From Cystobasidiomycetes sp. EMM_F5 (taxonomy: Eukaryota), in assembly GCA_051047955.1 (NCBI GenBank), contig JBPGPT010000012.1, positions 186,001 through 250,000 of the forward strand: DNA of 64,000 bases, read 5' to 3'. A program made the position numbers and the translations under genes. Every line of letters begins with the position of its first letter. The first letter of the stretch is position 1. Below the pieces are notes generated by a model. The model was given only the letters and a program-made list of their open reading frames with translations. It made no database searches and was not told the DNA's origin. Of the stretch, positions 35,801 through 36,707 are shown piece by piece.

Positions 35801-36707
35801 TTGCACCCGACAAACTGAAGAAAGGCGAAAAAATTGGTAGCGGTGGTTTCAAGGACGTCTATGAGGGACGTTATCGCAACGTTCGGGTTGCTCTTGCCGA
35901 CATTCGCGGGCATCTGACCGAGAATGATTTGAAAGAGCTCAGCCTCCTTCGCGATCTCCGCCACGAAAACATTGTTCGATTCATCGGAGTCTCCATTCCT
36001 GAAGTTAAGGATGTCCCAGTCACTATTGTTTCCGAATTGTGTACCAACGGCGACCTGTTCGACTACATACGTAATGTAGCTCCGCCGTCTTTCGACAAAG
36101 TAGTAAGTGACAGGCTACTTTGCAGTGGTATAGATCTGCCAGGCTGATGTCTACAACTTACCCTTTACAGCTCTCTATCATGCTCAATATTGCTCGAGGC
36201 ATCGAGTATCTGCATATGCGAAAACCAGCCATTATTCACCGCGACCTCAAATCCTCGAATGTACTGATCACTGCGCGAGGAGTCGCCAAGGTCACCGACT
36301 TTGGACTAGCTCGGGTCCGCAACACAACACGCTCCATCATCAAGTCGCTCGTCGGAACAGTCAACTGGCAGGCACCTGAACTCTGGGTCCCACACCCTCG
36401 CTACAACGAGAAGGTGGATGTCTACTCTGCTGCATTGGTCTTCTGGGAGTGTCTACAGTGGCACCTCAGTCAGAAGCGGTATCCTTTCGAGGGGATGAAT
36501 GAGCATGCAATCTACCAAGAAGTGGGTCATCGCCAATTCCGACCGTCCACTGCCACCATGCGCCGACAATGGGGCGGCGATATTCTGGATCTCGTTGACC
36601 GTATGTGGGCGCAAGATCCGAAAGACCGGCCAAACATGACCCAAGTCGTACAAGACCTGGAGGTCCTGCTTGCTGCGGAGAAGGCTCGAATGCGAGCGGC
36701 AAGGTAG
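32825..36707 (+). CDS. Large TKL-like Ser/Thr protein kinase with acidic disordered N-terminus, SAP/HEH-like modules and WNK-like lysine placement
   Basis: [38 protein letters not shown], DVYS. Three phase-consistent introns. Confidence 0.9.

Follow-up and report, generated by a model that had tools for sequence, protein, structure and literature searches.

A kinase gene with a putatively relocated active-site lysine

The window analysed here is the whole of a 64,000-nucleotide stretch of DNA from Cystobasidiomycetes sp. EMM_F5 (contig JBPGPT010000012.1, positions 186,001 to 250,000 of the forward strand), and it carries a plus-strand gene whose product ends in a TKL-like protein kinase domain lying behind a putative SAP motif. 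The feature of interest is in the N-lobe of this domain, where strand beta3 lacks the canonical lysine of the VAIK motif and a lysine is found instead in the Gly-rich loop, as in the WNK kinases. A direct read of the codons gives GSGGFK for the loop (GGT AGC GGT GGT TTC AAG, 35836-35853) and VALAD for beta3 (GTT GCT CTT GCC GAC, 35887-35901). Both the letters and the coordinates reported by the first-pass annotation, made by a model from the sequence, are thus right, including the Lys codon AAG at 35851-35853 and a beta3 strand without Lys, Ala (GCC) standing in its place.

Solved kinases were aligned with HMMER, using a 33-residue stretch as the query for TNNI3K and the N-lobe profile of the family for CSK; in both structures the loop Lys falls on the last of the three glycines of GxGxxG, while the Ala is aligned with the lysine of VAIK. 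In two named WNKs, P0396 (Periplaneta Wnk) and P0397 (Centropristis WNK2), the identical columns hold Lys and Cys (GRGSFKTVY and VAWC). Besides the beta3 Lys everything expected is intact in the window's kinase, namely the alphaC Glu, HRDLKSSN, DFG (36297-36305) and the APE of GTVNWQAPE, which ends at 36380. The motif definition of a pseudokinase (VAIK Lys, HRD Asp or DFG Asp missing) applies through the VAIK Lys, the only one of the three to be gone, and a naive annotation would call this protein a pseudokinase, as the first-pass annotation had noted. A relocated Lys is not considered in that definition.

Gene model and protein architecture

Two plus-strand reading frames carry parts of the protein, 33952-36147 and 36111-36707, the second of which resumes the same protein after a short gap. 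A 68-nt intron splits the kinase domain inside the span described by the first-pass annotation, which did not mention it, while the Gly loop and beta3 lie within a single uninterrupted exon. No stop codon interrupts the spliced model (Table 1), which aligns collinearly with the full-length relative P0008 over amino acids 18-1232 at 47% identity. The public gene call, P0004 (660 amino acids), has a late start within the exon 3 frame and runs into intron 3 to a stop at 36147, with the result that the whole C-lobe is lost from it; the relatives P0005-P0007, P0009 and P0010 are cut off at the same intron.

The only Pfam domains in the 1232-residue protein are the kinase and a sub-threshold SAP, the rest being low-complexity acidic and basic sequence with long acidic tracts and with basic clusters, PPLKRRR for example. 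The SAP match (PF02037, at 35296-35370) scores 17.4-17.8 bits with an E-value of 0.003, under the cut-off of 23.9 bits; the same domain was detected in 14 of 35 family members, and precomputed Pfam entries list it for about 31 of the 120 relatives listed in the search with the second clade described below. A further conserved motif nearer the N-terminus, with RLRKD at its core, recurs in P0005, P0008, P0026, P0077, P0035 and P0144; it drew no Pfam detection and may be SAP-like. The layout is a long disordered acidic and basic N-terminal region, then the SAP motif, then a C-terminal Ser/Thr kinase domain.

Table 1. The kinase gene of the window and its parts (positions in the window)
Feature	Position	Strand	Basis or remark
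Whole gene	32825-36707	+	4 exons, 1232-aa protein, TAG stop included
Exons	32825-33411, 33473-34194, 34250-36102, 36171-36707	+	tblastn of P0008 and frame-keeping GT..AG pairs
Conserved N-terminal motif A..L.RLRKD.L.RL (LxRLRKDxLxRL)	34273-34416	+	SAP-like by eye
SAP motif (SSLLRLKRDDLLRLCRERDLAQEGTKKELVAALIEW)	35263-35373	+	Pfam SAP PF02037
Kinase N-lobe, subdomains I-V, end of exon 3	35815-36102	+	Pfam PK_Tyr_Ser-Thr 47.2 bits, Pkinase 36.2 bits
Loop Lys, AAG	35851-35853	+	Replaces third Gly; proposed catalytic lysine
Strand beta3 VALA	35887-35898	+	Ala GCC 35896-35898 replaces canonical VAIK lysine
alphaC Glu, in DLKEL	35935-35937	+	Aligned to CTR1 alphaC Glu
Intron 3, GTAAGT...CAG, 68 nt	36103-36170	+	No extra residues at this point in homologs
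Kinase C-lobe, subdomains VIa-XI, exon 4	36171-36704	+	Pfam Pkinase 109.8 bits, PK_Tyr_Ser-Thr 95.3 bits
Catalytic loop HRDLKSSN	36237-36260	+	Translation
Activation segment, DFG to GTVNWQAPE	36297-36380	+	Translation

The lysine swap is conserved across a fungal family

A word-indexed search with the N-lobe returned 219 proteins. Among the best 120, each of the 119 homologs combines a G[ST]G[GA][FY]K loop with a beta3 strand that has no lysine. Among the complete domains (n = 103, comprising 102 homologs and the window's model, with 17 truncated rows left out) the loop residue is Lys in 103, and the beta3 residue is Ala in 64, Cys in 23 and Ser in 16. The alphaC Glu, the H-R-D, the Lys and Asn of the catalytic loop, the D-F-G and the string GTVNWQA.E are invariant in 103/103, which extends to the family what the first-pass annotation had said of the alphaC Glu, HRD and DFG of this one kinase, all three of which are seen in its translation.

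When 1.84 billion representatives were searched exhaustively with HMMER, 4,798 matched at E<=1e-30, and the best 150 were re-scored per domain. Within these the boundary of the family is sharp, with members scoring at least 284 bits and outsiders at most 168 bits. The loop Lys together with Ala, Ser, Cys or Gly in beta3 was found in 146 of the 148 full family domains and in 17 of the 17 truncated ones (163/165 overall). The combination of a loop Lys with loss of the beta3 Lys occurs in none of 179 non-family kinase domains, two of which have both lysines.

A second clade was first met as Calcarisporiella with five unnamed sequences and was then searched with its own profile. Its proteins are short, about 360-400 amino acids, and consist of SAP and kinase. 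The loop Lys is present in 112 of the 112 domains having that column, and beta3 carries Gly in 103 and Ala in four. The beta3 residue is Ala in the window's kinase, Ala, Cys or Ser among the 103 complete domains, and typically Gly in the clade of early-diverging fungi, in each case one of the four smallest amino acids. On these alignments the lysine swap is a trait of the family, conserved far beyond chance, and the co-conservation that the first-pass annotation had proposed to look for, of the loop Lys with loss of the beta3 Lys, holds throughout.

The loop Lys and the alphaC Glu form the only charged pair of the N-lobe that is invariant in both clades. Two other basic residues were considered as alternative catalytic residues and rejected, the Arg three positions after the beta3 residue (DIRG) and the Lys that directly precedes the alphaC Glu; each is invariant in Basidiomycota and variable in clade 2. 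The same Arg (35905-35907 in the window) has a possible partner elsewhere, as the Asp directly after the loop Lys (FKD, 35854-35856) is invariant in 103/103 and the two may pair across beta2 and beta3.

Distribution of the family

Basidiomycota-type members were found in Puccinio-, Ustilagino-, Agarico- and Wallemiomycotina and in Tremellomycetes, with Wallemia, Malassezia and Calocera among those named. Clade 2 covers Mucorales, Mortierellales, Glomeromycotina and Endogone, and further Kickxellomycotina, Basidiobolus, Massospora and Thamnocephalis, so that the family ranges over Basidiomycota, Mucoromycota and Zoopagomycota. Among the named matches of the family searches there were no ascomycete or chytrid members. 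This is an old, mostly single-copy fungal family, and the simplest reading of its distribution would be that the lysine relocated once, ahead of the split between Zoopagomycota, Mucoromycota and Basidiomycota, and that Ascomycota later lost the gene.

The only clear paralog seen is in Puccinia coronata, where a second, divergent copy (P0154/P0252/P0254, 419 bits) with the motifs VGSGSFKDVY, VAICDLRG, HRDLKSP and GTLNWQAPE stands beside the orthodox P0092. One member, P0031, was deposited as Adiantum nelumboides; the insertion QITASQKRR between its Gly loop and beta3 is shared with P0023 of Acaromyces ingoldii, and P0031 is probably fungal contamination of the fern assembly. Four further matches of the search among representatives, P0143, P0137, P0155 and P0183, are very long unnamed proteins with many tandem kinase or kinase-fragment domains; in P0143 (2911 amino acids) 10 stretches match, P0137 contains 15 short HRD-DFG fragments and P0183 four PAK-like domains.

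The domain resembles TKL kinases more than WNK

The first-pass annotation had described the domain outside the two active-site positions as TKL-like rather than WNK-like, and comparison with solved structures agrees. The kinase domain of P0008 matches CTR1 (132.7 bits), ZAK (126), TNNI3K (114), DLK (110) and B-Raf (106) above WNK1 (96.9), and with the C-lobe as query the order is CTR1 (90), ZAK (85), DLK (76) and then WNK3 (64.9). TK and TKL chains are on top when the N-lobe is used, whether as sequence (WNK outside the best 60 of 404) or as profile (WNK outside the best 60 of 561). The family profile ranks DLK (161.8), CTR1 (161.1) and ZAK (156.5) before WNK1 (135.3) and B-Raf (134.9), and the clade-2 profile gives CTR1 206, B-Raf 184 and TNNI3K 169, with WNK outside the best 60 of 1831. 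TKL kinases are thus above WNK in all six PDB searches. The Pfam model PK_Tyr_Ser-Thr matches end to end in 35 of 35 members, covering profile positions 4-256 of 258 in P0012. The nearest sequences outside the family are TKLs of protists and giant viruses with canonical lysines, and matches in the ESM Atlas are generic (clusters of PBK/TOPK, RIPK3 and BRAF).

As seen in P0396 and P0397, WNK shares the Lys in place of the third Gly (GRGSFK for the family's GSGGFK), a small non-lysine residue in beta3 (VAWC for VALA or VAIC), the alphaC Glu and HRDLK. Its remaining motifs are HRDLKCDN, DLG and GTPEFMAPE, strings which the first-pass annotation had quoted and which are all present in P0397, whereas the family has HRDLKSSN, DFG and GTVNWQAPE. 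In WNK the kinase is N-terminal and is followed by the PF2 domain, OSR1_C (PF12202), which both P0396 and P0397 carry. In the family the kinase is C-terminal behind SAP and ends the protein, and no PF2/CCT-like OSR1_C was detected with Pfam in any of 35 members or of nine more. The TKL kinases CTR1, DLK (MAP3K12), ZAK/MLT, B-Raf and TNNI3K, in contrast, are the best whole-domain matches of the family, to which overall similarity is higher than to WNK, and the MAP3K-like kinases of this group have the same Ser/Thr-type HRDLKSxN loop, DFGLA(R) and GT..W.APE. They differ in that all retain GxGxxG and the VAIK lysine and none has the SAP-plus-kinase architecture.

Trees were calculated in two ways. 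FastTree, applied to 55 family and 38 outgroup domains, recovered the family as monophyletic at 0.999. Separate FastTree runs rooted on WNK were uninformative, since three groups yield just a trifurcation and 21 of their "outgroup" rows are low-scoring family members. IQ-TREE was run under LG+C20+F+G4 with posterior mean site frequencies (PMSF) and a quick search on 58 rows, consisting of 12 of the 143 Basidiomycota-type family domains, 12 of the 80 clade-2 family domains, 30 of 70 others (among which P0382 is a family member), two WNKs, both animal, the PAK-like P0183 (STE) and the bacterial PknB-like P0399. The family forms one clade with a value of 100 in the approximate likelihood ratio test of Shimodaira-Hasegawa type (SH-aLRT) and is joined to TKL domains at 90 (not starred), with WNK outside. 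When the two trait columns are removed, the values are 99 for the family and 92 for family plus TKL, again not starred.

Relation to described fungal kinases

The Cryptococcus kinome study lists CNAG_06671 as YKL1, assigned by Kinomer to TKL_sub3 at 3.2e-35 (PMC5052723). C. neoformans Ykl1 shares the label "TKL protein kinase" with the family member P0144 of C. depauperatus. In the BLAST matrix published for it, as far as the order of its columns can be inferred, matches are strong for basidiomycetes only (1e-70 to 1e-131), with Phycomyces at 1e-39 and 16 ascomycetes at about 1e-17 to 1e-20 (PMC5052723), the same pattern as in the family searches, where no named match was an ascomycete or chytrid. 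Judged from the label, the Kinomer class and this matrix, Ykl1 is a probable family ortholog. The ykl1 deletion is viable, and the scores given for it are minor (capsule -1, urease +1, peroxide +1; PMC5052723); the available portion of the kinome paper makes no mention of a relocated lysine (PMC5052723).

A second fungal lineage to consider was FslK, which in the part of its description available is likewise fungal, TK/TKL-like and lost in Ascomycota (PMC3937382). According to that account, FslK kinases have all conserved subdomains, are absent from Ustilagino- and Pucciniomycotina and are expanded in Agaricomycetes (PMC3937382). Membership in FslK was rejected for the present family, which lacks the beta3 Lys, is present in Puccinio- and Ustilaginomycotina and is mostly single-copy.

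Members of the family appear in their source annotations as "TKL protein kinase", "TKL/TKL-ccin" or "kinase-like protein". A full-text literature search, outside whose scope the pseudokinase survey of Kwon et al. (2019) fell, found no description of a relocated lysine in fungal TKLs. Of the first-pass suggestion of a possibly undescribed fungal kinase class, then, one half stands, in that the relocated lysine is undescribed in the literature searched; the proteins themselves already bear generic "TKL protein kinase" labels, and YKL1 has been named and deleted.

A proposed active site and its alternatives

We think it reasonably likely that this is a fungal SAP and TKL kinase with a WNK-style relocated lysine, active rather than a pseudokinase, and most likely convergent with WNK. 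The precedent comes from two systems. In WNK1 the role of the beta3 Lys is taken over by Lys233 in beta2, on which activity depends, its odd position having been proposed to let WNK1 bind halide, and POMK also supplies the missing VAIK lysine from beta2 (PMC10211241, PMC4718504, in the portions available). By analogy, the loop Lys, at the third-Gly position where beta2 starts, would extend into the room that the small beta3 residue leaves, pair with the invariant alphaC Glu and hold the ATP phosphates as Lys233 does in WNK1. The relocation would have taken place inside the TKL group before the split of Zoopagomycota, Mucoromycota and Basidiomycota, with the gene later lost by Ascomycota. POMK (SGK196) is a parallel, likened by description, in that it too was once called a pseudokinase and has its VAIK lysine replaced from beta2; the text available to us describes a kinase that phosphorylates a sugar and in which DFG and HRD are relocated as well (PMC10211241), whereas the family's HRD and DFG are canonical.

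The protein is probably an active enzyme, because all catalytic elements except the beta3 Lys are invariant. The rival view, that it binds nucleotide or partners without phosphotransfer, serving as a scaffold or allosteric regulator which the SAP motif keeps on chromatin, can point to the canonical beta3 Lys being missing in every member. The near-null deletion phenotype of the probable Cryptococcus ortholog would fit it too, as would the InterPro terms of that ortholog, which in the available part of the study do not include "ATP binding site" and "active site" (PMC5052723). We consider it unlikely nonetheless. The HRD, the Lys and Asn of the catalytic loop, the DFG, the alphaC Glu and the APE are unchanged in 103/103 domains and retained across three phyla, and the same arrangement is found in the active kinases WNK1 and POMK. 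Moreover, alongside an invariant loop Lys, beta3 is limited to Ala, Cys, Ser or Gly, in keeping with a steric need at beta3 more than with relaxed selection. The trivial explanation, a sequencing error, pseudogene or wrong gene model that mimics lysine loss, has next to no likelihood. It could draw on the public gene call P0004 being wrong at intron 3, but both sites fall within a single exon, the open frame of the spliced model aligns collinearly with P0008, and the same residues recur in hundreds of independent sequences, so that the conservation among homologs has already refuted it.

Whether the lysine moved twice is the harder question. Were the family a deep relative of WNK, the lysine would have moved once in a common ancestor, and the TKL look would reflect ancestral similarity or later drift. 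Both positions are identical to those of WNK, with the family profile WNK1 (135.3 bits) comes close after DLK, CTR1 and ZAK, and a family plus WNK grouping is not rejected by the approximately unbiased (AU) test (p 0.549, or p 0.149 without the trait columns). Common descent with WNK is argued against by the rank of TKL above WNK in the six PDB searches, including those with the N-lobe alone, where the trait sits, and by the C-terminal kinase behind a SAP motif and the lack of OSR1_C. Kinomer assigns the probable Cryptococcus ortholog to TKL, and Phycomyces is reported, in the part of the source available, with three WNK sequences of its own (PMC10301571), from which it follows that the family is not simply the fungal WNK. 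Once the two trait columns are dropped, the likelihood also moves about 6.3 units away from the WNK grouping; these columns thus pull towards WNK by about 6 units, and the rest of the alignment leans in the opposite direction, short of significance. Taken together, descent with WNK appears rather improbable, and a relocation inside TKL independent of WNK is favoured but not proven, convergence being rated likelier because similarity searches and architecture favour TKL. The independent evolution inferred at first pass is therefore upheld in part: TKL outranks WNK, PF2/CCT is lacking and the branch with TKL has an SH-aLRT of 90-92, yet the AU test does not reject family plus WNK. As to nesting within the WNK clade, which the first-pass annotation had named as contrary to convergence, the free tree has WNK outside family plus TKL, and the AU test does not reject family and WNK as one side of a branch.

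Several observations weigh against an active, convergent kinase. The family profile scores WNK1 as high as B-Raf. The SH-aLRT of the family plus TKL branch is just 90-92, and the PAK-like and PknB-like outgroups are on long branches. With the trait columns in, the family plus WNK tree has a log-likelihood 0.82 higher, and without them one 5.46 lower, and the AU test rejects it in neither case; a sample of two animal WNKs on a long branch, one STE kinase and one bacterial kinase cannot settle convergence against common origin. As to the trait itself, Gln occupies the Lys column in P0156 and P0171, N-terminally truncated fragments in which it is the first aligned residue (QDVY), probably an intron or start-site miscall inside the Gly loop, and the beta3 region is gapped or odd in five clade-2 rows, probably gene-model errors. 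As to activity, the usual motif rule classes the protein as a pseudokinase, the Lys geometry is an argument by analogy, and the near-null ykl1 deletion means that the function is non-essential there, a result uninformative on catalysis.

Predicted function and significance

For the active kinase that we favour, HRDLKSSN predicts Ser/Thr specificity, and the activation segment has conserved Ser and Thr residues (..STRSM.RS..) at which the kinase may phosphorylate itself. Its SAP motif, together with the basic clusters and acidic tracts, suggests a nuclear role bound to chromatin or nucleic acid. WNK autophosphorylation is inhibited by chloride, according to the accessible text of PMC4718504, and by analogy anion binding in the vacated beta3 pocket of the family is possible. 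A more far-reaching proposal would make this a nearly pan-fungal, SAP-tethered nuclear kinase that re-invented the WNK site and whose beta3 cavity binds an anion (chloride), so acting as a chromatin-associated sensor of ions or osmotic state; we regard it as speculative and very improbable. If it were true, the ascomycete model yeasts, from which the family is absent, would never have revealed the kinase, having lost it.

Under automatic motif rules this family, represented by one gene in most fungi outside the ascomycetes, would be classed in its entirety as dead. If active in the manner proposed, it would be a further eukaryotic case of a beta2 lysine beside WNK and POMK, and an independent origin would favour the view that the design is a workable solution arrived at repeatedly, not a peculiarity of WNK. 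The family would also offer a natural test bed for the benefits of this design, anion sensing or inhibitor selectivity for example. Its members are found in rusts and smuts that attack plants, in mycorrhizal fungi, in Mucorales and in relatives of Cryptococcus.

Neighbouring genes

The genes next to the kinase are of the ordinary housekeeping kind in fungi and show no evident connection with it. Their open reading frames encode a histone deacetylase domain (29596-30597, plus strand), a Rit1 domain, as in the tRNA ribosylphosphate transferase (39532-40230, minus strand), and AIP3/Bud6 (42521-44309, minus strand).

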